From NCBI GenBank assembly GCA_045863855.1, contig BTVV01000083.1, positions 1 through 26,506 of the forward strand: DNA of 26,506 bases. The letters are read 5' to 3'. This DNA is from Planctomycetota bacterium (GTDB taxonomy: Bacteria; Planctomycetota; SZUA-567; H5-PLA8). Positions 4,397 to 25,454 of this stretch are shown here, one piece after another. Made by a program: the position numbers and the translations under genes. Within the stretch, counting starts at the first letter, position 1; each line of letters starts with the position of its first letter. Below the pieces are notes generated by a model. It worked only from the letters and a program-made list of their open reading frames with translations, ran no database searches and was not told where the DNA came from.

Positions 4397-4534
4397 TCAT
4401 TGTATGGCAGCAAGTATCTGAATACAGGTACTGGGCGAATGGTAATCTGGAATACCAAGTATCAGTCGCCCCAAAACGCGCTTCTGTTCGTCGGTGAAGA
4501 TCGCCTTACGGCCGCGCTTGTCCTTCTTGGCCAT
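4397..4534 (-). pseudogene. small, probably truncated ORF (45 aa, MAKKDKRGRKAIFTDEQKRVLGRLI...)
   Basis: ATG follows the stop of the upstream HTH gene (TGAAATG) with a GGAGG RBS. The GC-rich first half switches to more AT-rich sequence near 4460. Confidence 0.35.
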
Positions 4535-4535
4535 T

Positions 4536-4973
4536 TCATGCCCCTCCCAGCACGCGTAAGCGCTCCAACGCCTCGCGCTTGCCCAGTCCCCTCAAGGCCG
4601 CCAGCGCCGCCACTTGCGATGCCCTTGGCTTGGTCTTGCCTGATTCCCAGAAGTAGACCGACTGCGCCGATGCGCCGGCGAGCTTGGCGTACTGCTCGGC
4701 CGATAGATCCAGCTTGGCGCGGTGCTTCTTGAGCCAGAGGGGGCTGAAACGGGCCTTAGTATCGGCGGCTACGACAGGCTGGGCGACACGGCTACGTTCC
4801 TGGCCCTCTAGGAACGCGACCTGCTTGGTCAGGCGCGCTACCTGGCGCTTCAGGGCGGCTACGTCGCGGCGGTACTGGGTCGAGGCGCGGTGGAGCGGGG
4901 CGGCTTGGGCGCGCGATTCCTTGCGGGCGATGCGGGAGATTTCGGATTTGAGGGCGGAGGCGAAGGAGGACAT
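4536..4973 (-). CDS. XRE/Cro-C1-type HTH DNA-binding protein with N-terminal coiled coil
   Basis: 145 aa. N-terminal FASALKSEISRIARKE plus coiled coil, C-terminal HTH LSAEQYAKLAGASAQSVYFWESGKTKP. Confidence 0.85.
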   Translation of the reverse strand: MSSFASALKSEISRIARKESRAQAAPLHRASTQYRRDVAALKRQVARLTKQVAFLEGQERSRVAQPVVAADTKARFSPLWLKKHRAKLDLSAEQYAKLAGASAQSVYFWESGKTKPRASQVAALAALRGLGKREALERLRVLGGA

Positions 4974-5366
4974 GGACGGTTACTGGGTGAAACGGGCTTT
5001 GTAGACCGAATTGGGATTCCTCCACCTTATTTCAAGAGGGTGGCCACCTCGGCCCCACCCCACGTGGACGCAGCATGCCCAACCTGGCGAGCCTCTCGAA
5101 AGTCCGCGCGGTGCACCCACTCGCTCGGCCTCCCAGGCTCGTAAATCTTCACGGCCACTAACTCAGGAAAGTACACGGCCCGTGACTGGTGGTCGCTCTC
5201 GATCCACCATATGAGGCTGGGGCGTGTCCGCTCGAATACGCGTGTTCCCTGTGCCATGTTTAGTATTTTCTAGAGAGGGATCATCTAAAATTTGAAATTT
5301 AGCGGTATCCCGTTGGGTCCTTGGTGGGCCTTTCATGGACGTAAAGCGCGTTGGGGCACGCATGAC

Positions 5367-8114: not shown

Positions 8115-8258
8115 TCAACCCCCCTCCAGCACGCGTAGCCGCTCCAACGCCTCGCGCTTGCCCAAGCCCCTCAAGGCCGCCAGCGCCACCACCTGCGCCG
8201 CCCTTGGCTTGGTCTTGCCGGATTCCCAAATGTAGATGGACCGCGTGCAGGTTTTCAT
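8115..8258 (-). pseudogene. 3' remnant of a paralogue of the HTH gene at 4536-4973
   Basis: Translates to ...SIYIWESGKTKPRAAQVVALAALRGLGKREALERLRVLEGG*, nearly identical to the C-terminus of 4536-4973. The N-terminal ~100 aa are missing. Confidence 0.8.
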
Positions 8259-10079: not shown

Positions 10080-10478
10080 CTACTTCATCCGGCGCGCGGA
10101 CGATTCTTCTGCAAGCGCGAGCACCGGTAGTACGGCGGCCAGCGCATCCCGGTCGTGGCGTTCTAGGATCGCATCCAAGCGCTGACGCGCCTGGGCTGCC
10201 ATGGTGGACCACGGATCCGCAGGTTTCACCTGGATCAACTCGTGTGCGGCGACGCCCAATGCCTCCGCGATACGCACGACGAGTTCAAGGCCCGGCTCCG
10301 CCTCGCCCTTTTCCAGGCGCGTGATGTAGCTGAGGCTGAACGCCGCGCGTCGAGCCAGTTCGATCTGCTTCATGCCCAGGCCCGTCCGTAGCTCGCGTAC
10401 CCGACGGCCGAAATGCTTCACCGCTTCGGCGCGATTGAGCGCGACCTTTTTCCGCCGGCTCTTGTTCGATTTTGGCAT
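10080..10478 (-). CDS. XRE-family HTH transcriptional regulator (probable element repressor)
   Basis: FGRRVRELR..GMKQIELARRAAFSLSYITRLEKGEAEPGLELVVRIAEALGV is a canonical HTH_3 pattern. Confidence 0.9.
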   Translation of the reverse strand: MPKSNKSRRKKVALNRAEAVKHFGRRVRELRTGLGMKQIELARRAAFSLSYITRLEKGEAEPGLELVVRIAEALGVAAHELIQVKPADPWSTMAAQARQRLDAILERHDRDALAAVLPVLALAEESSARRMK

Positions 10479-10646
10479 GGTACGCCCTCTCCGGTGAGAT
10501 CGGCCGGAGAGGGAACACGTGCATACATACGATACTATCTATCAGACTACATTATTGTGCTTTGTGTGCCCCTAGTTATACTCCGCCGTTATCGAACGGG
10601 CCGATGGGCGCCCGGGGAACTTTATCGAGACTGCGGGGCGGGGCCG

Positions 10647-11309
10647 ATGAGCGAGATTACCGCGAAATGGGAAGCACTGGGCGGCAAGGGCGGCTTTCTC
10701 GGGGATGCGCTCCAAGAGGAATCCGCCTGCCCCGACGGCGTGGGACGATATCGCCCGTTTCAGCACGGCCACATCTATTGGCATCCGGAGACCGGCGCAC
10801 ACGAGGTCCATGGGGCCATCCGCGACAAGTATGGTGAAAGGGGCTGGGAGAAGAGCAACCTCGGATACCCAGTTTCGGACGAAAAGCCGGGGCTTGAAGG
10901 TATAGGGCGGTTTAGCGAATTTCAGCGCGGCTTTATCGTGTGGGACCAGGAGAAGAACACCTGCGAGGTGGTCGAAAACCAAGGTGAATACGCAAAGCAC
11001 TATTCCGAACCGGCGTTCTGGGAGACGGTGACCGACTACGCATTGAAGGCCGGGCGGCAGGTCATTGAATATGCGGTGATCCTGTACTACTCGCTGATGG
11101 ATCCGGATACTCCCGTTTGGGCACGAACGGTCATCCTTAGCGCATTGGGTTACTTCATCTTTCCCGTGGACGCCGTTCCTGATGTCGTTCCGGTCATCGG
11201 ATTTTCGGACGACTTGCTTGTTCTTGCTGCGGCCTTGGTCGTCGTAGCGATCCATATCAAGCCCGAGCACCGTGAAAAGGCGCAGTTGAAGCTGAAGGAG
11301 TGGTTCTAA
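10647..11309 (+). CDS. LGFP-repeat / YkvA (DUF1232) fusion protein
   Basis: Two LGFP-type repeats (W..LGG..G.LG, FQHGHIYW, LGYPVSDE, FQRGFIVW) followed by ALGYFIFPVDAVPDVVPVIGFSDD of DUF1232. Confidence 0.8.
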   Translation: MSEITAKWEALGGKGGFLGDALQEESACPDGVGRYRPFQHGHIYWHPETGAHEVHGAIRDKYGERGWEKSNLGYPVSDEKPGLEGIGRFSEFQRGFIVWDQEKNTCEVVENQGEYAKHYSEPAFWETVTDYALKAGRQVIEYAVILYYSLMDPDTPVWARTVILSALGYFIFPVDAVPDVVPVIGFSDDLLVLAAALVVVAIHIKPEHREKAQLKLKEWF

Positions 11310-12025: not shown

Positions 12026-12964
12026 TCACACGGCGTCCAAGCCGAAGTCGTCCGCCGCGCTTTGCAGGATGCGGCCCAGCGCGAACGGGTCGGTTCCATT
12101 GGGCAGGTTCAAGAGTGCCGCCGCCAAACTTGCGCGTTCCTTCTCTTCGATCAGTTTCAGGCGCTCCCATTCACCCTTGGCCAAATGCCGGGTAATGCAG
12201 GCTTCAACCATGCGCCGCAGTTCGGCCATCGGCATGGCGTCAATCTCGACGGACTCGCCATCAAAGGAGGCCGCGCGGGAATCCGACTTCTTCGTCGGGC
12301 GCGTCGGGAGTTGGAACTGCTCGATCTGCTCCGGCAGGACGGCGACTCGCTCGAACTCAACGTCTACGTTGAAGTCCTCCTGCATGGTTGCCCGTGCTTT
12401 GCGGTCGATGAATACGCCGCTGGGGTCGTGGTCGCCGAAGTAGTAGACTTGGTTGCGCCGACGTTGAGTCTCCATCGCCTTGAAGATTCCAGCCGCAGCG
12501 CTCAGGCTGGAAAGACTGGCGAAACCGCGGCACGGAAAAACCTTCACGCCGAACGGTTCAGCCACGTCCTTCAGGATGCCTGCGATCGCGTCCTTCTCAC
12601 ACCATATCTCCACGTACACCCCCGTCGCCGACCATGCGTTCTTCCGGTACAGGCTCACGGCGCTTAAAAGCGCGTCCGAGATCGAATCGTAGGTCGGCAT
12701 GCCAATATGCCAGCGCTGGCTATCAACGAACGAGTCCCAGGGGATAGAGCCGGCACGGCGCCACCCGGCCAGCAGCCTGCACAGGCGCTTGTACTCGGCT
12801 TCGGTCTTCTCAAGCAAAGTGGCGCTCACCAGCCGGTAGAACATGTGCCTGACGGACATCTGGCCCGGTTCAGAGGCGAGGATGGCCATCGCTCCCTCCA
12901 AGAGGCGCTGCAATTCCGCCTTAGTGCTGCGGCCGCGCTTTACGAGACTAGTCCGGTAAGCCAT
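12026..12964 (-). CDS. Topo VI-A/Spo11-like (Mini-A / DUF2399-type) winged-helix + Toprim protein
   Basis: N-terminal MSVRHMFYRLV with a candidate catalytic Tyr; Toprim motifs VEIWCEKD, CRGFAS, YFGDHDPSG and EIDA. Confidence 0.8.
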   Translation of the reverse strand: MAYRTSLVKRGRSTKAELQRLLEGAMAILASEPGQMSVRHMFYRLVSATLLEKTEAEYKRLCRLLAGWRRAGSIPWDSFVDSQRWHIGMPTYDSISDALLSAVSLYRKNAWSATGVYVEIWCEKDAIAGILKDVAEPFGVKVFPCRGFASLSSLSAAAGIFKAMETQRRRNQVYYFGDHDPSGVFIDRKARATMQEDFNVDVEFERVAVLPEQIEQFQLPTRPTKKSDSRAASFDGESVEIDAMPMAELRRMVEACITRHLAKGEWERLKLIEEKERASLAAALLNLPNGTDPFALGRILQSAADDFGLDAV

Positions 12965-13105
12965 GGGTTGCCCCCTTTAAGTCGGAATCCGCTTTACTTT
13001 GCGTATCTCGCCATGCATTGCACTTCGGCCTTCTCCGCTGTGGAGAGGGGGCGGCTGATTGGCGAGCTCTTGGGCATCCCGCCGTTATTGGCAGGACTCA
13101 CAAAT

Positions 13106-13492
13106 TCACGAGCGTATCTCCGTGCGGGGGATCGGATGAACTTGGTACTGTGCAGTTCGTCCCGGCCCCACCAACTCTTGGGTGAGGTGCCCGCTAGACT
13201 TCAGCTTCGCCAGGGCCCATCGAATAGTGCGCAACGGTTTGCCCGCGAGAATCTCCAGTTTCTTCGCGGAGATGCGCGCGCAGTATTGTCCGGCTAGAGC
13301 ACCTTTCGAAAATCGCGCCTGCCGAGTCGCCTCCCATTCCAGGCAGAAGAGGACCGCCGACCGGGTATCGGGCATGGCGCGCGCCAACGCCTGCATGCGC
13401 GATAGCGAGATGTGCGCGAAGGCTTCCTGGGATACGGAGGCGATCCCGAGACCCACATCGTCATCGTTCAGCGGGGTAAGCGCGATTGTCAC
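13106..13492 (-). CDS. small winged-HTH DNA-binding protein
   Basis: ISAKKLEILAGKPLRTIRWALAKLKSSGHL...GRTAQY is a wHTH pattern. GTGA overlap with the polymerase stop. Confidence 0.7.
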   Translation of the reverse strand: MTIALTPLNDDDVGLGIASVSQEAFAHISLSRMQALARAMPDTRSAVLFCLEWEATRQARFSKGALAGQYCARISAKKLEILAGKPLRTIRWALAKLKSSGHLTQELVGPGRTAQYQVHPIPRTEIRS

Positions 13493-15279
13493 GAGGCCGC
13501 CTCCAGGCCCGCCAGCATGGTTTCGAGCGAGTCCTCCTTTCCGTCCTTGGCGAACCGTCGCAGGACCTCTATGTCCCGGCGCGGCATCAACCCGGGAAAC
13601 AGTTGCGACACGGCGTTGGCCGTGGCCGAAACGATGCGCTTCCGCGCCTCGGCAATCGCTTTCCGATCATCCAAGACGCTCAACAGGTACGCGTCGTGGA
13701 TCGGTAGGCGGATATCCAGGCCTAGATCGTCCAGGTAGAGGCCAGTTAGCTGAAAGCACGTGGCCGCGGCCGACTGTATCGGGAAGTTTTGGCAGGACCG
13801 AGCGAGGTGCCCATGGCCGACTCCGGGTTGGGCGGCAAAGCAAGCCCGAAACCCGAATGCGTTCTCCGCCCATCCGCGTTCCAAGCCAGCGGACACGTAC
13901 GCTTTGAGGTAATCGAAAAGCTCGCGGTAGGCGCGCTGGAACGCGGAGAGGTGGGCCAGTGCCGTCTGGTAGGGTACGCCCAGATCGGACGCGATGGACC
14001 TGATGCCCTTGCCGTACAGGATCGCAAGCATGAGCGCCTTTAGTAAGGTCTTTCGGACTCGCCGCTGCTCTTCGGGCGTCATGTCGTCGCGGATCAGACC
14101 CAGGCGCCGGCCCAGGTTGAGGTACACGTCGCCGTTCGCGAAATCCTGTAGCAGCGCGACACACCCGCTGATCCAGCCCGCGATCCCGGGCTCCTGCTGA
14201 CTGAAATCGAAATGCAGAAACACACAGCCTTCATCGGGGAGCAGGAGCGGGCGGAGTTCACCCGGCATGCCCATCAGATTTGGGGACACGGTGGAGTTTC
14301 GGCCTGTGTGCTGGGCCAGCGGCAGAATCCCGCATCGCAATCGGCCGTCGAGATCCACCCGGCTGCCGATATCCTGACCCATGAACGAATCGAACCGCCT
14401 AAGCTCATACGCCGCGTTGATCGCGGGGTGGAGCCCGCGAAATTCTTTCAGGTGCTCCTCCTTCGCGCTCAGCTTTCGAGTCGGGGTTTTGGGCCATTCT
14501 TGCGCCAAGCCCAAGTTGGAGATCATCCGCGTGAAACCCGTGCTGCCGAGGCCCTCTCCGTCGTGGTCGTAGCCGACCGAGCGCATCAGCTCAAGCCGTG
14601 GCTCTCGATACCGCGGGGCGGCCTCTTGCAGGCGCGACCACGCGTGTTGGTCGAACCTCAAACCCCGGCTGGCGGCTTGGGCCATCAGCCGTGTGTAGGG
14701 CTGGTACAGTTCGACGAGATTGCGCTCCGCAGTTGGCCCGCAATGGCGCTTTAGGTCGGCCATCAACGGGCCGAACGCCTTGAGAGATGTTCGGGCGTCG
14801 TCAGTACAGTATTCTAGTACGCGCTGCAGACCAAACTTTTCGGCGTGCTCTCCGCGCATTATCGCTTCGCGAATTTCGTCCTTTTCGCCTTCCCCGATGA
14901 AAGGGATGTGAAAACGCGAAGCGAGATTCCCGAGGCTCGCCGCGCGGTAGAATCCGCCGGGCAGCTTGAAGGCCGAGGCGTGCAACACCATCAGCAGCAT
15001 GGTCAACGTGTCGAAGTAGCGGTTGGGGAAACGCAGCCCGACAGCGCGGCAAAAGCCCAACTCGGCGTGCGCGCCGTGGACGATGAACACGTTCTCCGGA
15101 TCGTCGAGGACGCGCTGGAGTTGGCCGTAGTGCTCGGTCAGGCGCAGTTCGCGCCCATCGTCGAATACAAGACAGGCGCAAACCGGCTGGAGCGTGGTCA
15201 CGTCGGCGTGCGTGCGCCCACCACCCAGGTCCACCACACGCCGGAAGCTGTACTCCGTGTCGAAGCCGACCAGCATCAC
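13489..15279 (-). CDS. family A DNA polymerase with 3'-5' exonuclease and no 5'-3' nuclease domain (mobile-element type)
   Basis: ExoI FDTEY, ExoIII YCTDD, TGR motif, motif A DFSQQE, motif B RKTLLKALMLAILYG, NFPIQS and motif C IHD; 596 aa. Confidence 0.95.
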   Translation of the reverse strand: MMLVGFDTEYSFRRVVDLGGGRTHADVTTLQPVCACLVFDDGRELRLTEHYGQLQRVLDDPENVFIVHGAHAELGFCRAVGLRFPNRYFDTLTMLLMVLHASAFKLPGGFYRAASLGNLASRFHIPFIGEGEKDEIREAIMRGEHAEKFGLQRVLEYCTDDARTSLKAFGPLMADLKRHCGPTAERNLVELYQPYTRLMAQAASRGLRFDQHAWSRLQEAAPRYREPRLELMRSVGYDHDGEGLGSTGFTRMISNLGLAQEWPKTPTRKLSAKEEHLKEFRGLHPAINAAYELRRFDSFMGQDIGSRVDLDGRLRCGILPLAQHTGRNSTVSPNLMGMPGELRPLLLPDEGCVFLHFDFSQQEPGIAGWISGCVALLQDFANGDVYLNLGRRLGLIRDDMTPEEQRRVRKTLLKALMLAILYGKGIRSIASDLGVPYQTALAHLSAFQRAYRELFDYLKAYVSAGLERGWAENAFGFRACFAAQPGVGHGHLARSCQNFPIQSAAATCFQLTGLYLDDLGLDIRLPIHDAYLLSVLDDRKAIAEARKRIVSATANAVSQLFPGLMPRRDIEVLRRFAKDGKEDSLETMLAGLEAAS

Positions 15280-16037
15280 CCGACCTCCTTCGCGGCGAGC
15301 AGAGTCCGAATCTCGGCGTTGTCGGCGGCCAGCGCGTTGATGTCGTCGTAGGCCACGGCCTGGAGCGCATCAATGATCGCGTCCTGGTCGGGCCACGCGA
15401 CCTGCACGATGGCGTCGCGCTCGGTCTCGGTGAGGTCGAGCAGGTGGATCACGTGGCGGCGTTTCGAGTCGCTCCACTCTTTGAACGTTTTGTAGTGCGG
15501 GAATCGCGGCTGCAACTGCCGCAGGTCGGCCACGACACGCTGGCCGAACCTGGTCAGCGAGAGCGGCATGAGAACCACTTCAAAGGTCGCCCACGCGAAG
15601 GCCGGCACGAACAGCAACCGGCGCGCGCGCGGCAGGACACGAGGGTCCCGCAGCAACGGCCCCGCTAGGATTTGATGGATCGCCTCGAATTCGCCCTCGG
15701 GCTTGTACGCAAGCCCGTGGAACGAGAGCGCGGCGTCGAGCTTGGGCGTGAAGGTCGCTCCAACGCCCCGCAACTCCCGCACCTCCAGCGACTCGACCGC
15801 TTGCGGTACGGCGAGCTGTGCGTCGGCGGCAGCCGCCAGGTCTACGCGCTTGCGCGGCTGCGGCAGCGGGATCGGCGCCGGCATGCCGGCGTTCGAGAAT
15901 TTCATCGCCGGCTCGACGGCACCTCCCTTCTCGGCAGCAGGCTCGCCATCAGCCGGGCTCGACGCATTGGCCCCCTCGTGATCCAGCGTCCCATCGGGTC
16001 CATCATCCAGCATGCCCGTAGCGACTACGGTGCCCAT
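15276..16037 (-). CDS. hypothetical protein coupled to the polymerase (possible SSB-like accessory factor)
   Basis: AGGAG RBS before ATG 16037; stop overlaps the polymerase start (GTGA). Function is inferred from position only. Confidence 0.65.
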   Translation of the reverse strand: MGTVVATGMLDDGPDGTLDHEGANASSPADGEPAAEKGGAVEPAMKFSNAGMPAPIPLPQPRKRVDLAAAADAQLAVPQAVESLEVRELRGVGATFTPKLDAALSFHGLAYKPEGEFEAIHQILAGPLLRDPRVLPRARRLLFVPAFAWATFEVVLMPLSLTRFGQRVVADLRQLQPRFPHYKTFKEWSDSKRRHVIHLLDLTETERDAIVQVAWPDQDAIIDALQAVAYDDINALAADNAEIRTLLAAKEVG

Positions 16038-16229
16038 GGGTGATCTCCTGGCATGGAGCGGCCCGCGCCGCTGCCCTCTCGGTGGTGGTGGCCAGGATCG
16101 GGCGGGCGGACGCGGGCCGCTATGTGTGAGAGACTGCCTGGCCACCGGGGGAATATGTACGAGGCGTCTTGCGGGTATCGCAAGGGCGACTGTTGCGGAG
16201 CGTTGCGGGCTCTCGACAACCAGATTGAG

Positions 16230-16706
16230 CTAGACGTTCTTTCGGAGGCGGTACTCCCTGCCACTACCAGACTTGCCATTTGATTCCAGCACGTTGGCTT
16301 GAACCATTAGCCTGAGCCATTTTGTTCGCGTCGTCCGATCGCGGGCTTTGAGATCCCCGGCCTTGAACCAATCGCCCGACGTCTTTTGGACTTGCTCCAA
16401 GAATTTCTGATGCGTGGCGAACCCCACCCCCTGGGGAGCCGGGACCGCCTCAGGCTGGGGGGCATCATTGGGCGTGCAGGTAGGGTGGGGCGAACTAATC
16501 GCAAGGCTGTAGTGCTTAGGTAGGGGGTGGTTCCAGACAATCGAACCCTCGCGCTCAAGGTGTTCGAGCACTTCGCGCAGACGATCCCGAAGATCCTCCC
16601 TGGCTTCGGCTGGGAGTTCCCGCCTTAGATAGTTCAATAGTTGAAAGTGGGACTTGGCCCCGATACCGAGCGTGGCCTTCACCAGCCGAAGAACTTGCTT
16701 GTTCAC
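16230..16706 (-). CDS. tandem winged-helix-like DNA-binding protein
   Basis: GGGAGG RBS before GTG 16706. Two segments (LREVLEHLEREGSI and WLRLMVQANVLESNGKSGSGREYRL) resemble wHTH ends, joined by a Pro-rich linker. Confidence 0.6.
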   Translation of the reverse strand: MNKQVLRLVKATLGIGAKSHFQLLNYLRRELPAEAREDLRDRLREVLEHLEREGSIVWNHPLPKHYSLAISSPHPTCTPNDAPQPEAVPAPQGVGFATHQKFLEQVQKTSGDWFKAGDLKARDRTTRTKWLRLMVQANVLESNGKSGSGREYRLRKNV

Positions 16707-16737
16707 CGGAATGCCTCCCCACCAAGAGGATTCTTCA

Positions 16738-16847
16738 TAGTAGTAGAGTAGTAGACAGGAGTGCAACCCGTTGCACGGGTATGGTGCGATGCGTTGCACC
16801 GGTTGTGGGCCCCGAAACAGCAACGTATTGCACCCCTAAAGCACCCC
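16738..16847. repeat. three 16-bp palindromic units (consensus GTGCAAC-NN-GTTGCAC) next to a TAG-rich tract; candidate origin or operator array
   Basis: 16761-16776 GTGCAACCCGTTGCAC, 16784-16799 GTGCGATGCGTTGCAC, 16818-16833 CAGCAACGTATTGCAC; TAGTAGTAGAGTAGTAG at 16738-16754. Confidence 0.65.
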
Positions 16848-17081: not shown

Positions 17082-17410
17082 CCGCCCGTTCAACCCCGGC
17101 CCGCGCTCCGCTCTTGCTCGCTAATCGGGGGGGCGACTGGGAGCGACGAAATTGGGCTCAATGGGCGACCTAAATTCCCAATGGAAGTGAATCCTTTTGG
17201 TTGCGCGCTACGGTTTGGATTCAGTTGTAGAAGTCCACCAGAATTGAGCCTCCGCTTCTCGTCAGAATAAAATACGCGGAAGATCTAGTTCAAGGCCGAA
17301 TTTGCCCCGTCAACACGATCTTCCCTGATCTTTCGGGCCCCGCAAACCTTCAACGAGCCCATTTGACCGGTTGGTGTGCAACCGGTCCAAACCCATTCAG
17401 GAGAGTCGTC

Positions 17411-17944
17411 ATGATTCGCCTTTCCGCCAATTTGTCCCGCAAGGTCCCGATCGCGGGCGTGCAGTTCAGCAGCCAGCAATTCGGCGCGTCCTTGGAAATT
17501 GAAGTCAGCGACGCCGACAAGCCGGAAGCGATCCAGGCCAGGATTCGCGAACTCTACGACTTGCTCAATCGCAGCATCGAAGAGCAGATCACCGCAGCCT
17601 CCGAGGCCAAGGGCGAATCCGCGCCCGGCGGCAACGACCAGGAGCCGGGAGGTAACGGCCAGCCGAAGGCCCAGCCGGAGGCGCGTCGCAACGGTCGCGC
17701 TTCGCCGCCCCGCGCTCAATACCGCCGCAACACCGGAGGCAACGGCCAGGGCAACGGCGGCAACGCCGAGCGCCGCTCCGCTGGCGCAACGCAGGCCCAA
17801 CAGCGCGCGATCTTCGCGATCTGCAAACAGCAGGGCATTGAGATGGCCGACGTGTTGGCCGACTACAACGTCGCCGACGCGCGCGACCTGACCGTGATGG
17901 ACGCGTCGAAGCTGATTGACGACCTGAAGTCCCGCAGCGCCTGA
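17411..17944 (+). CDS. hypothetical protein, first large gene of the rightward arm
   Basis: AGGAG RBS. Globular N-terminus, G/N-rich linker and C-terminal ATQAQ...LTVMDASKLIDDLK helical module. Confidence 0.8.
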   Translation: MIRLSANLSRKVPIAGVQFSSQQFGASLEIEVSDADKPEAIQARIRELYDLLNRSIEEQITAASEAKGESAPGGNDQEPGGNGQPKAQPEARRNGRASPPRAQYRRNTGGNGQGNGGNAERRSAGATQAQQRAIFAICKQQGIEMADVLADYNVADARDLTVMDASKLIDDLKSRSA

Positions 17945-18009
17945 AGCATTCGACGTACCTACTTCCCGCCATCACGATCACCGTACCCGATACCTAAAAG
18001 GAGAACTTC

Positions 18010-18855
18010 ATGCCGATTCAAGCGGCAGCCGCGCCGTCGTCTATCCAGACGGCGGCCGGCCCATTGCTCGACCACCTGAGTTGGTCGGGTGTCACGACGT
18101 ATCTGCAATGTCCAAAGAAGTTCGATTACCGCTACCTGGCCGATGCGCCCGAAGAGCGCAAGTCCGCCGCGCTGCTGTTCGGCGGCGCGTTCCACCGTGC
18201 CGCCGAGGCGGCTTTCCAGGCGCGCCTGGAAGGCCGTCCATTCCCGACCGTGGCCGAACTGCTGGCCGTGTATGACCGCGCTTGGAAGGAGGAAACGGCG
18301 GCAGCGCCCGAAGTCGTGTACGCCAAAGGCGAGGACGCCGCGAGCCTGCACGCCCTGGCCGAGCGGATGCTGGTCGCGTTCGTGGAGCACCTTGACGGTG
18401 AAGCCAAGTCCGCGCCACACCGCCGAATCCTTGCATTGGAGCACGCAAGCCGATTCATGCTCCTGCCGGAGACGCCGCCTCTGGAAGCGCGGCTCGACGT
18501 GTTGGAACTCGACGGGAATGACCTGCTGGTGACGGAAATCAAGACGAGCAAATCCCGCTGGAACGACCAGAAGGTGGCCGAAGCCCTGCCGCAACTGGTC
18601 GTGTACGCGCACGCGCTCATGCCGCTGCTGCGCGAGATCGGCGCAAAGCGTATCCGGCCGCGTTTTGTCGTGGTTTCAAAAGCCAAATCGCCCGTTGTCC
18701 AGGTACTGGAACCGAAGGCGACCCAAGCCGACGTGCGGCGCTTGCGCGAACAGGCCGGCGAAGTCTGGAAAGGCATCCGTGCCGGAGTGTTTCCGGCTCG
18801 CGAAGGATGGTGGTGTACGGCGTGTCCGTTTCGAACCGCGTGCCAAGGACGATGA
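18010..18855 (+). CDS. PD-(D/E)XK nuclease, RecB/AddB/Cas4-like with probable Fe-S cluster
   Basis: LSWS..TYLQCP, G.AFH, RLD...EIKTS, QLVVY and C-terminal CTACPFRTAC (1+3 Cys); AAGGAG RBS. Confidence 0.9.
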   Translation: MPIQAAAAPSSIQTAAGPLLDHLSWSGVTTYLQCPKKFDYRYLADAPEERKSAALLFGGAFHRAAEAAFQARLEGRPFPTVAELLAVYDRAWKEETAAAPEVVYAKGEDAASLHALAERMLVAFVEHLDGEAKSAPHRRILALEHASRFMLLPETPPLEARLDVLELDGNDLLVTEIKTSKSRWNDQKVAEALPQLVVYAHALMPLLREIGAKRIRPRFVVVSKAKSPVVQVLEPKATQADVRRLREQAGEVWKGIRAGVFPAREGWWCTACPFRTACQGR

Positions 18856-18858
18856 ACC

Positions 18859-19236
18859 ATGACGATCTGGAGCAAAATGTGGACGGCGGCCAAGACCGTC
18901 CTCCCGGATACACGAACCGGCGGCGAGAGCCTTCGCGACGTTGCCGACCCCACGCTGGAACGCGCGGCGGCGAGAGCCATGGACGTGGTGGACCGCGCGG
19001 CGCAGCACGAACACGAACTGCTGGAAGACGGCGAAATGCGTGCGCGGCGGCTCGTCGAGGACGTGGACAGCCGCGTGGACGCGCAACGCGAGCGTTTGCT
19101 GGACCGCACCGAGCACGTATGTGACCGGATCACGCGCCGGCTCGTTGTACGCGTGCTCGTGGTCGGACTCGTGCTGGTGGGCGCCACCGGCGCCGTAGCG
19201 GTGGCGGCCGTGTGGGCCGCGAAACTTCTACGCTAA
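18859..19236 (+). CDS. helical protein with C-terminal membrane anchor
   Basis: Starts 3 bp after the nuclease stop; charged helical body and hydrophobic C-terminus. Confidence 0.7.
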   Translation: MTIWSKMWTAAKTVLPDTRTGGESLRDVADPTLERAAARAMDVVDRAAQHEHELLEDGEMRARRLVEDVDSRVDAQRERLLDRTEHVCDRITRRLVVRVLVVGLVLVGATGAVAVAAVWAAKLLR

Positions 19237-19305
19237 GTCCTACTCAGTCGCTCTCGCGCCGCGCGGCACGGGTGCCTTCCCACCCCAACCTTTGGAGAAA
19301 CCATA

Positions 19306-19533
19306 ATGACCGCTGAAAACGTGGCCTTGATTCCACCCCGCCGCCGGGACCAGCTCTTCGGCGAGATCAAGAAGCTCGTCGCCGAGATCGACGCGCAGAA
19401 CCGCAGCCTGGGCGCGGTGGACGAGGACGGCGCCCTGATTGACGAAGCGCTGGAACAGATCGCGGGCCTGCTCGCCGCGGAAGTCAGCCGCGCCAAACGG
19501 CAAAGCCGCAGGCGTACCGCCGTAGCCGCGTAA
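19306..19533 (+). CDS. hypothetical protein (75 aa)
   Basis: GGAG RBS and high GC at third positions. Confidence 0.7.
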   Translation: MTAENVALIPPRRRDQLFGEIKKLVAEIDAQNRSLGAVDEDGALIDEALEQIAGLLAAEVSRAKRQSRRRTAVAA

Positions 19534-19551
19534 TCGTGCCGATCCTGTAGG

Positions 19552-19655
19552 GCCGCTCGCAAGCCAGCAGGCATCACAAGCCGTGCCCCGGCACGGCGGC
19601 GCGGGGCTACGCCGGTACCGGGCCGGCGAAGATGCCCCGCGGCGGGCGGCTTTTT
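19552..19655 (+). terminator. multibranch GC-rich structure followed by T5 (terminator/attenuator candidate)
   Basis: 19552-19560 pairs with 19642-19650; inner stems 19580-19597 and 19600-19641; TTTTT at 19651-19655. Confidence 0.45.
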
Positions 19656-19717
19656 CATTCACACGCACCATCCTCTTCACCACAACCACACCCGAATCTC
19701 ATGTGAAAGGTCCATCC

Positions 19718-20794
19718 ATGCCCATGGAAAGCACCACGTTGTATTACAGGGAAGGCAACTCCGACAAAGTGTATCAGGCGCGCATCGAACCGCAGGACGC
19801 GGGCTACGTCGTGAACTTCGCTTTCGGACGGCGCGGAAGCACGCTCCAGACCGGCACGAAGACGGCTTCGCCGGTGCCGCTCGACGAGGCCAGGAGGATC
19901 TACGAACGGCTCGTGCAGTCGAAGCAGGCGAAAGGGTACACGCCGGGCGAGGACGGCACGCCGTACTCAGGCACCGAGAAGGCCGAGCAGGATTCGGGAC
20001 TGCGGCCCCAACTCTTGAACGCGATCACCGAAGACGAAGTCGAGCCCTACCTGCTCGATCCCGCGTATTGGCTCCAGGAGAAGAAGGACGGCCGGCGCGT
20101 GCTGGTCCGTAAGGCCGATGGAGAAGTCACGGGCATCAACCGGCGCGGGCTGACGATGGGTTTGCCCGAAACCATCGTCAAGGCCGCGCGCGCGTTACGC
20201 GCCGACTTCGTCCTCGATGGGGAAGCCGTAGGCGACCGGATCTTCGCCTTCGACTGCCTGGAACGCGGCGCGTCGAAGCTGGAGAAGCTGCCCTACCGCG
20301 ATCGGTGGCGCATTCTGCTCGAACTGGTCGGCGGTCGCGGCGGCGCCATAGAGGTCCTGCCCACGGCGGCGGCGAGCGGGGACAAGCGCGATCTGCTGCG
20401 GTTTCTGCGGGAACGGAACGCCGAAGGCGTCGTCCTGAAAGACCGTGGCGCGCCGTATACGCCGGGGCGGCCGGCCAGCGGGGGGCCGCAACTCAAACTG
20501 AAGTTCACGGCCACCTGCTCCTGCATCGTCGCGCCGGGCCGTAACGGCAAGCGCAGCGTCGGCCTGGAACTGCTCGACGGGCTTAAGCTCGTGCCCGTCG
20601 GCCACGTCACCATCCCGCCAAATACGACCATCCCCAAGGTCGGCGGGGTCATCGAAGTGCGCTACCTCTACGCTTACCAGGGTGGCGCGCTCTACCAGCC
20701 GGCTTTCTTGGGCCGCCGCACCGACATCTTGACCGCCGCCTGTACCCTCGCCCAACTGAAGTTCCGCCGTGAAGACGGCGAAGACGAAGCCTGA
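19718..20794 (+). CDS. WGR-domain ATP-dependent DNA ligase
   Basis: N-terminal WGR-like domain (SDKVY...FGRRG...KQAKGY); ligase motifs I EKKDG, III LDGE, IIIa FAFD, IV EGVVLK and V KLK; C-terminal OB-like segment. Confidence 0.9.
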   Translation: MPMESTTLYYREGNSDKVYQARIEPQDAGYVVNFAFGRRGSTLQTGTKTASPVPLDEARRIYERLVQSKQAKGYTPGEDGTPYSGTEKAEQDSGLRPQLLNAITEDEVEPYLLDPAYWLQEKKDGRRVLVRKADGEVTGINRRGLTMGLPETIVKAARALRADFVLDGEAVGDRIFAFDCLERGASKLEKLPYRDRWRILLELVGGRGGAIEVLPTAAASGDKRDLLRFLRERNAEGVVLKDRGAPYTPGRPASGGPQLKLKFTATCSCIVAPGRNGKRSVGLELLDGLKLVPVGHVTIPPNTTIPKVGGVIEVRYLYAYQGGALYQPAFLGRRTDILTAACTLAQLKFRREDGEDEA

Positions 20795-20855
20795 TCCGCA
20801 CCTGCGTTCCTCGTTTGTCGGACTAGTCCATTAAACCCTTCAAGGAGGAAGGTCC

Positions 20856-21611
20856 ATGTTGATGTTGTCCAAAGCCCAGGAAGTCTCGCGCCACGATCTG
20901 GGCGCGATCCCCACGCCAAAGTCCACGGATACGTGGCGTCCCGTGCCGCACCTGGAAGTCGTCGAAACCCTGCTGCGGCGCGCCCAGGCCAAGGGTCTGC
21001 GCGTGACCGGCGAGCGCTACGCCGTCATGGACGGGTCGCTGTACCCCCAGCCGGGCGTGCAAGTTTCGCTGCGCGGCGCGCGCATGTTCGGGTCGCTGGA
21101 TTTCGCGCCGATCCCGGGCCTGAGATTCCCGCCGGGGTGCATGCCGTCCGCCGGCATCCGCAACAGCCACGACAAGTCGTTCGCGCTCTCGATCCTGAGC
21201 GGAGCGCGCGTGCTGGTCTGCGCCAACGGCGTCCTGAGCGCCGAGCACGTGATCAGCCGGAAGCACACCAGCGGCCTGGAGCTGACCGCCGAAGTGGACC
21301 GTGCGCTCGATGCCTTCCTGGCGAGCACGACTGCGTTCCACGACACCTACATGCAGTTGCGTGGCACGAGCCTCTCGAAAGCCCGGTCCCATCACTTGGT
21401 GGTGGAACTGGCCCGGGCGGGCGCGTTCTCGTCCTCCGATATCGTGCCCGTTGTTGAGGAGTTCGAGAACCCGCGCCATCCGGAGTTCCGGGAGCGCAAC
21501 GCCTGGACGCTTTACCAGTCGGCGACCGAGGTCATGAAGCGCCAATCGCCGGCGCGGCAGGTGGACGGCTTCAAGGCGCTGAATTCGGTCCTGTTGGAAC
21601 TGGTCAACTGA
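20856..21611 (+). CDS. DUF932-family protein
   Basis: TDTWRPVPH, GIRNSHDKS, GARVLVCANG, RKHT and NAWTLYQ motifs; AAGGAGG RBS. Confidence 0.85.
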   Translation: MLMLSKAQEVSRHDLGAIPTPKSTDTWRPVPHLEVVETLLRRAQAKGLRVTGERYAVMDGSLYPQPGVQVSLRGARMFGSLDFAPIPGLRFPPGCMPSAGIRNSHDKSFALSILSGARVLVCANGVLSAEHVISRKHTSGLELTAEVDRALDAFLASTTAFHDTYMQLRGTSLSKARSHHLVVELARAGAFSSSDIVPVVEEFENPRHPEFRERNAWTLYQSATEVMKRQSPARQVDGFKALNSVLLELVN

Positions 21612-21613
21612 AC

Positions 21614-21648
21614 GAAGGGCCGCGCCGCTTACCACGGCGCGGCCCTTC
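21614..21648 (+). terminator. 14-bp perfect stem-loop after the DUF932 gene
   Basis: GAAGGGCCGCGCCG-CTTACCA-CGGCGCGGCCCTTC; U-tract is weak. Confidence 0.6.
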
Positions 21649-21794
21649 CATTCGCCCAAGCAAGGAAGCCGCCATGAGACGGTTCACTCGCCGGATCGCC
21701 GCCAGCACGTGAACGGCGGCGCGTTGCTCGCCGTTCACGTGCTGCGCCGGGTGCTTCGGAAAGGTTGTCGCGGCACGTATGTAGATGGTGGTAA

Positions 21795-21826
21795 CCCCTA
21801 TTTTTCTGGGACGGACTCGATAAGAT
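21795..21826 (+). promoter_or_regulatory. putative element-specific promoter CCCCTATTTTTCT-N13-TAAGAT
   Basis: Second copy of the motif at 9725-9756. Confidence 0.55.
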
Positions 21827-21864
21827 TGGGCTGTCGGATCGAGGCGGGTTGGGGGAGGGACGGT

Positions 21865-22392
21865 ATGCCTGAGAGTCCAGAAACCAAGCCGCCCGAAGCG
21901 GCCGACGAAACCATCGCCGATGTTTTGTTGAAGCTCGCCCAGGCCGGCGACCTGAGCAAGGTCGCACAAACCCTGTCCGGTCGCGGCGTGCTGGCCTATG
22001 AACCTCAGGATCACCAAAAAATTATTCGCCGTTGCATCGCGGCCTGCGCCCAAGCGGGCACGCCGCAGCTGGCTGATGCCCTGTTGCAATCCATGCTCGC
22101 GTTTGACGGCGCGCTGCTGTTGCGCGCACAAACGCGGGCGCTTTTTCAGATGAAGCGCGCGGACGCCGAGTCTGGCCCCACCGTCGGCCCCTTGCCCAAG
22201 GAAGCCGTGGAAGAACTCGAACGGGTTGGCCGGCTCGAAGAACGGATAGTTTTCCTGGCCCAGAACTACAGCCGGGTCCAGCGTTCGTTGGGTTTGCCTG
22301 GGTGCGGCGGCAAGCGCAAGGGGAGCGGCCAAGTGCTGCGGATGGGCGATTACCTGGATGACAACGAAGTCCCCGCAAAGGGCGGCGAGTAG
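21865..22392 (+). CDS. hypothetical protein
   Basis: GGAGG RBS before ATG 21865; predicted helical. Confidence 0.7.
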   Translation: MPESPETKPPEAADETIADVLLKLAQAGDLSKVAQTLSGRGVLAYEPQDHQKIIRRCIAACAQAGTPQLADALLQSMLAFDGALLLRAQTRALFQMKRADAESGPTVGPLPKEAVEELERVGRLEERIVFLAQNYSRVQRSLGLPGCGGKRKGSGQVLRMGDYLDDNEVPAKGGE

Positions 22393-22394
22393 CC

Positions 22395-22916
22395 ATGCCG
22401 CCCGCGGCACATCAGCAGTGGACCGAAGCGGAGTTGATGGCCTTAATCCCGCCGGAGTATCTCCAGAAATTGCATGAGCTGCGCCCCGTTCTGGAAGTGC
22501 AGGGCACGGTTTTGCTCCGCTACGAACGAGATCGGCGGCAAGCCTTCTCTCTGCGTTACCGCGCCCAGGACCCCGATGGGCGTTGGGTTCATCGAGCCGT
22601 TGCCATGGGCGGCTGGGAGTCGGGGCCGTACGCGCGGCTCTTGATCAAGAAGTGGCGGTGCGAGCGTCGGGCCAAGCGCGCCGCCGAACTGGCGGAAGCG
22701 GCCCGGCAGGCGCGGCTGGAAGCGCGGGCGCGCCGATTAGAACGCCAGCTGGTCCGCAAGATCCTGCCCGGCGGAAAGTTGTTCAAACGCAGGGCGATGA
22801 AAGCGTTCGACGAGGCGGCCGGCAAGAGCCCACTGCACGCGCTCGGATTCCTGCACGGCATGGACGACTTGCAGCCTGCTCGGCCGGGTCGTCCCCGGCG
22901 CGGGAGGCTCTGGTAG
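22395..22916 (+). CDS. basic hypothetical protein
   Basis: 173 aa, starts 2 bp after the upstream stop, Arg-rich. Confidence 0.65.
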   Translation: MPPAAHQQWTEAELMALIPPEYLQKLHELRPVLEVQGTVLLRYERDRRQAFSLRYRAQDPDGRWVHRAVAMGGWESGPYARLLIKKWRCERRAKRAAELAEAARQARLEARARRLERQLVRKILPGGKLFKRRAMKAFDEAAGKSPLHALGFLHGMDDLQPARPGRPRRGRLW

Positions 22917-23068
22917 CGCGACAGAGCACATACGACGGGCTTCTCCGGGCTCGTTTCCCAACCCCGCCGGAAGTGCGTTTTCAACCCAGGTGCATGTACC
23001 CGCATTCTGGGCGCGTCCGAACCTAGCCCCAGCCCCTGCAAAACCACCAATATAAGGAAGGTCCAACC

Positions 23069-23335
23069 ATGCTCACGAAAAGCAGGTCACGTCGCCAGGC
23101 TCGCAGCGGGCTACAGTGCCCGCATTGCGGGAACGCCGTTTTCTGGTCGCTGTACCGTGCCGTGATCCGAGTCGAACACATGCAGCAAACCGGCCCCCGG
23201 ACCTGGCGCCGTATGCGGACGGAGAATCGGCGCTACGATTTGCCGCTTCCGCTCTGCATGGTTTGCGAGCGCTGCGGGCACCCCGCGCCGGTACCGGAAA
23301 GAGTTCGTGCTTCTTCGGCTAGCCATGCCCCTTGA
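23069..23335 (+). CDS. small zinc-ribbon protein
   Basis: CPHC...CERC pairs; AAGGAAGG RBS. Confidence 0.65.
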   Translation: MLTKSRSRRQARSGLQCPHCGNAVFWSLYRAVIRVEHMQQTGPRTWRRMRTENRRYDLPLPLCMVCERCGHPAPVPERVRASSASHAP

Positions 23336-23359
23336 CGACAGCGCCAGATATGGTACGAA
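23332..23359 (+). promoter_or_regulatory. possible sigma70 promoter for the excisionase-integrase unit
   Basis: TTGACG-N16-TACGAA with a TGn extended -10. Confidence 0.3.
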
Positions 23360-23595
23360 ATGTTCAGCGACTACGCGCGATGACAGCGCATCGCTCGATC
23401 AACCATCGAGGATCTGAGCCGCAGGTAAACCGCGAGAAGTGATGCGCGAACGCCTCGGCCGGTCGCTACCCCAAGTTGTTGATATTAGTCGTTCCAACGG
23501 CGCCCGTCGGCGTGCCGTCTTCGCTTGGGTTTCGCCCTGCCCCTTCCGCACCTTCCTCGCTCCTGTGGCCGGACTCGGCATTGCCGGAGTGCCGG

Positions 23596-23946
23596 ATGCA
23601 GAAGCCGAAACAGCCTTCCGAACACCATCTAAAGCTAGAGTCCGAAGTACATCCACCCGACTTCGAGGCAGAAGAGCCGGTCAATGCGACCGAGACTCGT
23701 GACCCTCGGCAGCCGGGTTCTTCATCCGCCTCCCTCCTGGTGGACGCCAAATCCGCGGCCGAGTTGATCGGCGTTTCTCCATCCACCTTTTGGAAGCTGC
23801 ACTCGCAAGGCCGCATCCCGAACCCGATGCGGCTTGGGGGGCGTGTTGTTCGTTGGCGCCGCGAAGAACTTAGCGCTTGGGTGCGCGCCGGCTGCCCTGC
23901 CCGCCACCTTTGGCGGCCTGACGATCGAACGAAGAGTAGGAGCTAA
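23596..23946 (+). CDS. AlpA-family excisionase / recombination directionality factor
   Basis: LLVDAKSAAELIGVSPSTFWKL...GRIPNPMRLGGRVVRWRREELSAW; lies directly before the integrase. Start codon uncertain. Confidence 0.85.
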   Translation: MQKPKQPSEHHLKLESEVHPPDFEAEEPVNATETRDPRQPGSSSASLLVDAKSAAELIGVSPSTFWKLHSQGRIPNPMRLGGRVVRWRREELSAWVRAGCPARHLWRPDDRTKSRS

Positions 23947-23950
23947 TCAA

Positions 23951-25192
23951 ATGAGAATCTTCAAGGCTACGTACAAGGATCGCAACGACCAGCGCCGGAC
24001 ATCGGCGAAGTGGTATGGGGAGTTCAAGGACCACAACCAGCGAGTTCGAAGGGCTCCCCTCGTTACTGACAAGGCCGCGAGCCTTGAGCTGGGCCACAAG
24101 ATCGAGCGGTTGGTCGCGCTCAAAGTTTCGGGTGAAAGCCCGGATCTCGACTTGGCCAAATGGATGGTGGCCGCGCCGAGGCATGTCATGCGCAAGCTGG
24201 TTGAGTGGGGTGTTGTCGAATCCAGCCGCCTCGGGGCGATGAAGTCTTTCAAGGAGCATTTGGAAGACTATCTGGACGACTTGTCCGCTGCGGGAAATTC
24301 GGCGAAGCACGCCATCGTTTCACATGCGCGCGCGAAGCGGGTCATAGAGGGATGCCGGTTCGGATTCATCTCGGACGTCAACCGGGAGGCCATCAAGGAG
24401 TTCTTAGGGAGGCTTCTCAAGAAGGGGAGGATCGGTCCCAAGACCTACGGATACTATGTTCGCGACTTGAAGGCGTTCTTTAAGTGGATGCGCCGGTCCA
24501 GCAGGCTTCGAGAGGACCCTGTGGAGCATTTGGAGGGGTTGGGCGCCTCCGCGATCGCGAAGGGGAGGCGCCGGATTCGGCGTGCTTTGACCATCAAGGA
24601 GATTTTGCTGCTTCTCGTGTCAACCTGTGACCAGCCCTTCCGGTACGGCATGAAAGGGCAGGAGCGGGCGCTGGTCTACCGCCTGGCTCTTGAGACCGGA
24701 CTACGGGCAGCGGAGCTTGCAAGTCTAAGGCGGGCAAGCTTCCATCTAGGCGCCAAGCCAGCAACGGTCTTTCTCTCCGGAGCGTCCACAAAGAACCTGC
24801 GGGATGCAGAGCTGCCGCTTCGGAATGAAACCGCACTTCTGCTACGGGACCATTTGGCGGCGAAGCTGCCCGGTGCGAAGGCGTTTGCCATGCCACCCAG
24901 TACGGAGACCGCACGGATGCTCCGGGCGGATTTGGCCGCGGCCGGGATTCCCGATAAGGATTCCCAGGGCCGAGTCGTTGATTTTCATGCCCTACGGCAC
25001 ACCTTCCTGACCCTCCTGGCCGCCAGCGGGGTACACCCTAAAGTTGCCCAAGACTTGGCTCGCCATTCGGACATAAACTTGACCCTCTCCAGGTACAGCC
25101 ATACCATCCTGGAACAGCGCTCGGAAGCAGTGGATCGGCTCCCCAAATTCGACAAAGTCGATGTCCAGGACGCGGAGACGGGGCCGAATTAG
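23951..25192 (+). CDS. tyrosine recombinase / phage-type integrase
   Basis: Catalytic R (TGLRAAE), K (STKN), HALRH, ARHS and Y (SRYSH); AGGAG RBS before ATG 23951. Confidence 0.95.
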   Translation: MRIFKATYKDRNDQRRTSAKWYGEFKDHNQRVRRAPLVTDKAASLELGHKIERLVALKVSGESPDLDLAKWMVAAPRHVMRKLVEWGVVESSRLGAMKSFKEHLEDYLDDLSAAGNSAKHAIVSHARAKRVIEGCRFGFISDVNREAIKEFLGRLLKKGRIGPKTYGYYVRDLKAFFKWMRRSSRLREDPVEHLEGLGASAIAKGRRRIRRALTIKEILLLLVSTCDQPFRYGMKGQERALVYRLALETGLRAAELASLRRASFHLGAKPATVFLSGASTKNLRDAELPLRNETALLLRDHLAAKLPGAKAFAMPPSTETARMLRADLAAAGIPDKDSQGRVVDFHALRHTFLTLLAASGVHPKVAQDLARHSDINLTLSRYSHTILEQRSEAVDRLPKFDKVDVQDAETGPN

Positions 25193-25264: not shown

Positions 25265-25285
25265 CCTCCCAGAGGGGAAGTCGGC

Positions 25286-25374
25286 GCCGGAGTGGCGGAA
25301 CTGGCAGACGCAGTGGATTCAAAATCCACCGAGGTTCACCCCTCATGAGGGTTCAATTCCCTCCTCCGGCACCA
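25286..25374 (+). tRNA. tRNA-Leu(CAA)
   Basis: Acceptor stem GCCGGAG/CTCCGGC, discriminator A plus encoded CCA, anticodon arm GTGGA-TTCAAAA-TCCAC, long variable arm and GGTTCAATTCC T arm. Confidence 0.97.
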
Positions 25375-25407
25375 AATTACATAAATATAAGGACTTATAT
25401 AAACGGC

Positions 25408-25454
25408 GTTATACAAAAAGTTATACGGAAATGTTATACGGATGTTATACGGAT
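25408..25454 (+). repeat. four GTTATAC direct repeats (candidate arm-type sites) upstream of TATAAT at 25460-25465
   Basis: Copies start at 25408, 25420, 25433 and 25444. Confidence 0.75.

Follow-up and report, generated by a model that had tools for sequence, protein, structure and literature searches.

A conserved cassette of a predicted SSB, a family A DNA polymerase and a winged-helix protein in a tRNA-integrated element of a Planctomycetota bacterium: a possible helicase-less relative of PolA-SSB primase modules

The window analyzed in this work is one entire contig (BTVV01000083.1, here C83; 26,506 nt) of a Planctomycetota bacterium; contigs (C) and loci (L) are cited below by our own numbers. 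It carries an element that adjoins a tRNA-Leu(CAA) gene and encodes a nuclease, a ligase, a DUF932 protein, an excisionase and a tyrosine integrase, and whose replication slot holds a self-contained cassette composed of an origin-like repeat, a predicted binding protein for single-stranded DNA (SSB) resembling T4 gp32, a proofreading DNA polymerase of family A (PolA) and a winged helix-turn-helix (wHTH) protein of the initiator type. The cassette, together with a Mini-A gene and an additional open reading frame (ORF), is organized as follows:

12026..12964, minus strand: Mini-A, a Topo VI-A-like protein with 5Y-CAP and Toprim domains, 312 aa, catalytic motifs intact (PHROGs, alignment)
13106..13492, minus strand: winged-helix protein, 128 aa, resembling the N-terminal DNA-binding domain of RepA_N, HTH_36 and lambda O initiators (ESM Atlas, structure)
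13489..15279, minus strand: family A DNA polymerase of the Klenow type, 3'-5' exonuclease motifs intact, Leu at the motif-B3 position and HDA in motif C (Pfam, PHROGs, NCBIfam, alignment)
15276..16037, minus strand: predicted oligonucleotide/oligosaccharide-binding (OB)-fold, T4 gp32-like single-stranded DNA-binding protein, 253 aa, N-terminal ~80 aa disordered (AlphaFold2 model)
16230..16706, minus strand: ORF of 158 aa with two wHTH-like segments (by eye), no significant family match
16733..16833, minus strand: origin-like non-coding motif, three palindrome-like repeats and then a pyrimidine-rich tract (pattern, nhmmer, profile)

An earlier note on this DNA, made without database searches, described five co-oriented genes, three of them coupled by GTGA overlaps, and proposed that the Toprim enzyme might supply a 3'-OH end to PolA. 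All five genes were found on the minus strand, with two corrections of their starts: the gene then called unknown begins at ATG 16037, with a good ribosome-binding site (253 aa), and not at GTG 16145, and the first ORF most likely begins at GTG 16706, also with a ribosome-binding site (158 aa), its frame being open from 16823. The PolA gene starts at 15279 or 15276 and ends at 13489, the wHTH gene runs from 13492 to 13106 and, after a gap of 141 bp, the Toprim gene from 12964 to 12026 (312 aa). The proposed coupling holds for the PolA/wHTH junction; that between the SSB-like and PolA genes reads GTGATG, a GTGA overlap only if PolA starts at GTG and TGATG if it starts at ATG. Contigs of another study (run X3) show that the junctions which they bridge are not assembly artefacts: one spans Mini-A, the wHTH gene and the end of the PolA gene with zero differences, and a second joins the SSB-like gene to the 158-aa ORF and to the motif.

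The polymerase is of the Klenow type, as previously suggested: it matches Pfam DNA_pol_A (E 3e-22) and does not possess a 5'-3' exonuclease domain. The homologue set comprises 45 sequences, itself included (48-62% identity). The polymerase residues D357/R408/K413/H527/D528 are retained in 34/34 aligned homologues and Y421 in 33/34, and the same is true for L417 at the B3 position (34/34) and for the exonuclease residues D6/E8/Y156/D160 (33/34). PolA-SSB primases are marked by a last thumb helix shorter by one turn than that of Pol I; in a pairwise alignment of the window PolA to Taq, a 4-residue gap, which may fall in helix or in loop, precedes the conserved GR. The prediction of a PolA-SSB complex scored 0.00, a value that is evidence in neither direction.

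As for the upstream gene, the label of unknown protein hid a predicted gp32-like OB-fold SSB. Its AlphaFold2 model (predicted local distance difference test score 83.8) exhibits an OB barrel followed by C-terminal helices, and the best PDB match is T4 gp32 (8gme_B; Z 5.5, root-mean-square deviation (rmsd) 5.3, 152 residues aligned), with RB69 gp32 (2atq_B; Z 5.1, rmsd 4.8, 141 aligned) as the next-longest; a protein-glutaminase prodomain without relation to them comes level at Z 5.3 with an alignment of just 77 residues, and OB-fold proteins dominate the list. The search in BFVD gave 15 matches at E<=1e-3, including the annotated SSB of Streptomyces phage BRock, and 37 relatives of the protein were found at E<=1e-3 among 1.84 billion representatives; the ESM Atlas yielded no usable match for it. 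Fold and position point to a predicted SSB which, as a gp32-like OB-fold protein, would form with its neighbor a PolA-SSB pair and thus a published primase architecture.

The 128-aa wHTH protein downstream of PolA has a feature score of 0.96 to RepA_N clusters in the ESM Atlas and a template-modelling score of 0.60 to Phage_rep_O. The likeness to RepA_N, HTH_36 and lambda O proteins supports the idea of a wHTH of the initiator type and, as a lead only, would point toward origin binding.

The first gene, the 158-aa ORF, is probably a regulator occupying the slot of another gene, "X". It showed no significant family match in Pfam, PHROGs or NCBIfam and no meaningful match in the fetched loci and is not conserved; its likeness to L130:3193-3828 is not significant. 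The possibility that it represents the remnant of a primase-helicase found no support, as no longer homologue was found among 946 candidates (weak evidence) and no long frame exists upstream. The X family (285-395 aa) lies upstream of the SSB-like gene, without Pfam or PHROGs match, and the window carries the 158-aa ORF in its place. Its members are L005:1090-2148, L006:4514-5518, L013:2887-4017, L107:2305-3489 and L123:10435-11289; those of L123 and L013 are homologous (E 8e-22), and the others were grouped by eye.

The comparative analysis revealed that the three genes form a conserved arrangement. Genome and metagenome scans retrieved 13 close loci (PolA 46-62% identity), three named records of which are Gemmataceae or Singulisphaera metagenome-assembled genomes. 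The 253-aa SSB-like gene lies directly upstream of PolA in all seven close loci with upstream sequence, and the 128-aa wHTH gene directly downstream in all twelve with downstream sequence; where the contigs continue, an HTH_17-type gene comes next, often followed by an integrase, and integrases or serine recombinases are present in most related loci. The same order (a protein of 190-250 aa, PolA, a small wHTH protein judged by eye from translations) is found in 11 distant loci (PolA 23-28% identity), six of which were retrieved via PolA, four via the upstream protein and one via DNA similarity. The model of the distant-family upstream protein shares the order of strands and helices with the close-family one, has its longest alignment with gp32 (135 residues, Z 4.2, rmsd 4.8, rank 4) and has many BFVD matches in common with it. 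In a quick tree, with long branches and without bootstrap, close and distant PolAs form sister groups (Shimodaira-Hasegawa-like approximate likelihood ratio test 86), are joined by L113 (97) and lie apart from host Pol I, the marine viral PolAs and the PolA of L129. The PolAs of 80 IMG/VR loci were distant (21-31%), with SSB-like or wHTH genes in none; plasmid and phage collections gave distant PolAs only and contained nothing that matched the distant SSB-like protein. Within the genus, the sibling L123 carries a distant cassette in the same slot, with an X gene homologous to that of the close locus L013 and without Mini-A; some other siblings (e.g., contig C117) have no cassette there.

A different arrangement was found in L113 (G066:C1, 1395-5987), the seventh distant locus retrieved via PolA: a 228-aa Cys/His protein (gp32-like by eye) and a 600-aa protein accompany a related PolA. 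The 600-aa protein displays superfamily 2-like helicase motifs by eye, without a helicase match in Pfam, PHROGs or NCBIfam, and no primase was recognized in this locus, which may be a helicase-bearing form of the same PolA-SSB module.

The three repeats of the non-coding motif (16761-16776, 16784-16799 and 16818-16833) lie upstream of the first gene, and their pattern occurs four times in the window versus 0.94 expected, a number reached in 2 of 100 shuffles. An nhmmer search of 168 loci (~1.5 Mb) matched only loci of close PolAs, that is, L008 (E 5e-4), L013 (2e-3) and L005 (0.56), and shuffled motif queries gave no match at E<=100 in 15/15 cases. The alignment across the matched loci is clear, and a profile trained without L006 recovered this locus too (E 1.3e-4). 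L005, L013 and L006 have the motif upstream in the same orientation (in L006 ~4 kb off, past an insertion sequence (IS)), and L008 has it downstream and inverted. In L005 and L013 it is kept in the absence of Mini-A, on contigs that extend to an excisionase-like gene (and, in L013, to the integrase too). On the basis of this pattern, 16733-16833 may function as an origin. The candidate origin that had been placed at 16738-16847 is thus retained as an origin-like site at ~16735-16835, but with the SSB-PolA-wHTH trio as its partner.

The lack of a recognizable primase or helicase, which the earlier note had already remarked, was confirmed in the window, where no primase, helicase, HUH or GHKL family was detected among 34 ORFs in Pfam, 15 in PHROGs and 16 in NCBIfam. 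In 18 of the 24 cassette loci (the six short ones excluded), the 122 ORFs that a heuristic called up to 5 kb from PolA were compared with PHROGs (E<=1e-7), revealing no primase and one RecD2-like helicase, located past an integrase and a tRNA-Met gene. At looser cut-offs PHROGs did detect primases and helicases in other loci, most of them with E below 1e-7. A search of the genome itself (94% complete) found no Prim-Pol, DUF3987 or DUF927.

The Topo VI-A/Mini-A-like identity of the Toprim protein is supported, since it matches phrog_6247 ("DNA topoisomerase", E 5.5e-49) and bears the Mini-A motifs; its sole PDB profile match is Topo VI-A (1d3y, E 0.15, weak). The R-x-x-x-Y motif is indeed conserved, R39-x3-Y43 being invariant in 13/13 aligned sequences, like E123, D178-x-D180-x2-G183 and E240; the match to the C-terminal T2BI box of the xWELDAL type (VEIDAM, 239-244) is approximate (V for W), with E240 invariant and D242 in at least 90%. 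In agreement with the earlier note, no Topo VI-B partner is present, as no GHKL family was found among the 34 window ORFs (Pfam). Mini-A relatives occur in 78 phage records; no virion gene was recognized in the window, where the element is incomplete.

The linkage between PolA and the Toprim enzyme, on the other hand, is not conserved, an outcome that the earlier note itself had named as a refutation of its model. A profile search of the six frames of all 24 cassette loci and of three flanks found Mini-A in none (0/24), and eight of the close ones have at least 1.1 kb past the wHTH gene. The conserved unit is formed by three genes and a DNA motif (SSB-like, PolA, wHTH, repeat), and not by PolA plus Toprim. 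A survey of 400 genomes of the phylum gave 11 other Mini-A loci, only one of which (L129) contains a PolA. In seven of the eleven, a primase or helicase lies within ~3 kb: DUF3854 plus D5 (L129/L130), DnaB (L135), D5 (L155), DUF3854 plus DUF927 (L159), CHC2 plus D5 (L160), DUF3987 (L161) and, in L156, a primase-like PHROG at E 1e-7; in the other four none was recognized, one of them being on a 3.7-kb contig. In the sibling L129, Mini-A (56% identical) directly follows an unrelated PolA with its own primase-helicase, the PolA of L129/L130 belonging to another lineage with an HDE motif. In L130 (452-2954) the sibling's DUF3854/D5 primase-helicase is divided between two ORFs, and in L116 (5773-7206), close to a DnaB gene, Mini-A carries a ParB-like domain fused at its N-terminus.

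Mini-A thus travels with varied replication operons and is dispensable for this cassette, because L123 has the cassette without it and L129 has it by an unrelated PolA; it is an accessory, optional passenger and not a required primer source. The role of 3'-OH supplier assigned to it is not supported, given its absence from the 24 cassette loci and the motif kept without it in L005 and L013. Most likely it acts as a nuclease in topology or resolution; it may also have a general role in nicking, since rolling-circle initiators, too, coexist with helicases.

The rest of the element, on the plus strand, comprises:

17363..22916, plus strand: divergent backbone with a PD-(D/E)XK nuclease, a WGR-ATP-dependent ligase, DUF932 and hypothetical proteins (Pfam)
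23476..25192, plus strand: excisionase-like HTH_17/AlpA gene and tyrosine integrase (Pfam, PHROGs, NCBIfam)
25283..25374, plus strand: tRNA-Leu(CAA) integration site, its 5' 47 bp (25283-25329) repeated on contig C197

The integrase (23834-25192) with the tRNA attachment (att) site alongside identifies a site-specific recombinase on a mobile element. The backbone shares 66-79% DNA identity with sibling elements in genomes of the same genus and family. In a genome of the same genus, two att copies enclose ~168 kb; the window element is probably an extra, tandem insertion with its left end unassembled, because that att-bounded region maps to ~10 other contigs of the present genome. No second att-like copy was found elsewhere in the window, the contigs from four runs gave no joint indicating excision, contig depth was uninformative on copy number, and a promoter/terminator scan gave results at chance level only. 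The tRNA-Leu gene is used at both ends: its 5' 47 bp occur again on C197 and its 3' 58 bp on C53 (window 25283-26506), and a second integrase begins at 25492, within the same interval. The element belongs to a family of tRNA-integrated elements of this genus (window 17363-25192; L123, L129/L130, L139 and L113; contigs C117 and C157) with common backbone or flanking genes and an exchanged replication slot, which may contain SSB-PolA-wHTH, Toprim primase-D5 helicase-PolA-Mini-A, or none. Elsewhere in the window, an ECF-sigma-like N-terminus (by eye) fused to ankyrin repeats is followed by a GNAT acetyltransferase (5292-7547); an IS-like remnant is present twice (4460-4975 and 8120-8245, 88% identity between copies) and on many other contigs; and an LGFP-repeat plus DUF1232 fusion beside an HTH_3 regulator (10413-11309) is repeated on contigs C117 and C164.

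As regards the comparison with known systems, the A-family polymerase CcPol-MP of SCCmec requires an OB-fold partner for de novo priming, which usually starts opposite template C, and prefers an iteron origin (Bebel 2020, PMC7581432); PolA-OB-fold pairs are widespread, with 17 pairs in Bacillota (Rice 2023, PMC10061031). The cassette resembles these PolA-SSB primases in having an A-family polymerase with intact catalytic residues, an adjacent co-operonic protein of predicted OB fold, an integrative element with a nearby recombinase and a repeat-containing origin-like site close by. It differs in that no helicase was found in or beside the operon (window and 18 loci), for which reason we do not file it as a described PolA-SSB primase module, and in its order, SSB-Pol-wHTH instead of Pol-SSB-helicase (PMC10061031). 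In addition, it has a larger OB protein of gp32 type, the place that the helicase's origin-binding domain would take is occupied by a separate wHTH protein, and its close relatives come from records of Planctomycetota and not of Bacillota; priming here is putative.

With pipolins the element shares the tRNA integration and the tyrosine recombinase, and in both a DNA polymerase is the sole core replication enzyme that can be recognized; however, the polymerase belongs to family A and not to the primer-independent PolBs, is accompanied by an SSB-like protein, a wHTH protein and a repeat motif, and is only putatively primer-independent. The Toprim protein agrees with Mini-A as described by Takahashi et al. 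(PMC7671362) in the ~300 aa with 5Y-CAP and Toprim, RxxFY, E...DxDxxG, the ELDA-like box, the mobile element and the lack of a B subunit, whereas it is located on an integrative element in a window without a recognized virion gene; unlike Topoisomerases VI and VIII, it has no ATPase B subunit, separate or fused, and is only 312 aa long. TV-Pol is closely associated with a helicase (PMC10061031), in contrast to the PolA of the window. On motifs alone, this PolA may be likened to the CHEAP/"broken thumb" supercluster of auxiliary bacterial Klenow-type PolAs, with intact exonuclease motifs and Leu417 at B3; CHEAP PolAs, the subfamily closest to CcPol, carry Leu at B3 and have no known partners listed (Czernecki 2023, PMC10201439), and Leu-B3 also occurs in an unrelated supercluster and is not diagnostic alone (PMC10201439). 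A prophage-linked PolA3 group has been mentioned, with no gene context given (PMC12926913). A proofreading polymerase whose neighbor combines a gp32-like OB fold and a helical C-terminal part also recalls the polymerase-SSB elongation modules of T4 and other phages, but such phages encode their own primase and helicase, and so did the marine viral PolA loci inspected (Walker A motifs, by eye). In the literature searched, with subscription papers mostly outside its scope, we found no description of an SSB-PolA-wHTH cassette or of a Mini-A activity.

We suggest that the cassette might be a helicase-less variant of the CcPol-MP type of PolA-SSB primase module, to which Mini-A would be accessory, an interpretation whose chances of being right or wrong we judge evenly balanced. 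That the PolA-SSB pair primes itself, by analogy with CcPol-MP, we would rate somewhat short of even; the option that PolA might prime itself was already contained in the earlier note and is supported as such. According to this scheme, after excision the wHTH protein would bind the repeats and open the adjacent tract, the SSB would hold the exposed strand, and the PolA-SSB pair, in the manner of CcPol-MP, would begin de novo synthesis across from the pyrimidine tract. PolA would then extend the product while displacing a strand that the SSB would coat, and an element helicase would therefore be unnecessary.

Several points weigh against this interpretation. In all 17 Pol-SSB pairs described in PMC10061031 a helicase is present, in the order Pol-SSB-helicase. 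A polymerase and a gp32-like SSB are also the ordinary elongation pair of phages, which needs a separate primer. The gp32 match is only middling (Z 5.5), Foldseek of the SSB-like model against the PDB gave nothing at E<=1e-3, and profile-profile alignment (hhalign) of the close and distant SSB-like families detected no homology (probability 0.1-0.2, twice), so that their equivalence rests on position and predicted fold. Moreover, the SSB gene itself served to retrieve four of the distant loci, many cassette loci consist of short contigs, and the search for the motif gave no clear match in the distant loci (best E 0.58). The left end of the element is unassembled, and uncharacterized ORFs such as the X family remain. 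Finally, mobile-type primases and helicases are encoded on C22, C12, C178, C46 and C157 of the same genome and might act in trans or be linked to the element out of sight of the assembly; none of these is among the contigs mapping to the ~168-kb island.

The existence of host functions leads to a different scenario, a host-assisted theta replication in which the wHTH protein binds the repeats, host DnaB/DnaG (or a ColE1-style transcript) see to unwinding and priming, and PolA and SSB only extend primers or aid early synthesis. The likeness of the wHTH protein to the RepA_N and lambda-O initiator domains fits this idea, since initiators of this type work with host helicase and primase, and repeats followed by an AT-richer tract resemble lambda-type origins. 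However, the 128-aa protein does not contain the C-terminal helicase-recruiting part of O-type initiators, and a dedicated PolA and SSB would be largely superfluous beside a host replisome, although all informative close loci retain the two. Even though auxiliary PolAs proficient in exonuclease, CHEAP among them, were assayed for the extension of primers (PMC10201439), we consider theta replication unlikely. Quite unlikely, in our opinion, is that the cassette is not a replicon at all and, in concert with the nuclease, the ligase and the DUF932 protein of the backbone, performs second-strand or gap synthesis when the element DNA, incoming or excised, is single-stranded. Such a synthesis has been raised for PolA-SSB pairs (PMC10061031), the backbone does encode a PD-(D/E)XK nuclease and an ATP-dependent ligase, and same-genus siblings such as C117 do without the cassette in the slot; the small elements L006 and L013, nevertheless, have cassette, excisionase and integrase with no nearby ligase or nuclease match, and an initiator-type wHTH protein with a conserved repeat motif fits origin firing better.

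The model originally proposed, in which Mini-A nicks the repeat motif via Tyr43 and PolA extends the 3'-OH by strand displacement, appears very improbable, in spite of the invariant catalytic residues, of a Mini-A gene that follows PolA both here and in the same-genus L129 (56% identical), of its proximity to replication genes in most loci and of the absent B subunit. Indeed, type IIB enzymes build their active sites from two subunits of a dimer and usually cleave both strands; Mini-A is missing from every cassette locus and the motif is conserved without it; in L129/L130 it accompanies a PolA of another lineage with a DUF3854 plus D5-type primase-helicase; and, in the survey of the phylum, a nearby primase or helicase (7/11) is more common than a PolA (1/11).

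The broader idea, that is, that a class of small integrative elements recurring in the surveyed genomes replicates with a self-priming and strand-displacing PolA, a gp32-like SSB and a wHTH opener, without primase, helicase or nickase, is somewhat doubtful at present. The survey of Mini-A sets this family beside replication genes of several unrelated types and narrows its likely role to that of a general accessory. If the broader idea were correct, these elements would be to family A polymerases what pipolins are to PolB, and the first PolA-SSB replicon to do without a helicase. If the PolA-SSB pair does self-prime and displace, priming by PolA would reach beyond Bacillota and would proceed without the helicase of every described case, in a three-protein system with a defined origin that might be reconstituted in vitro; a proofreading, self-priming and strand-displacing PolA would also be useful for primer-free amplification.

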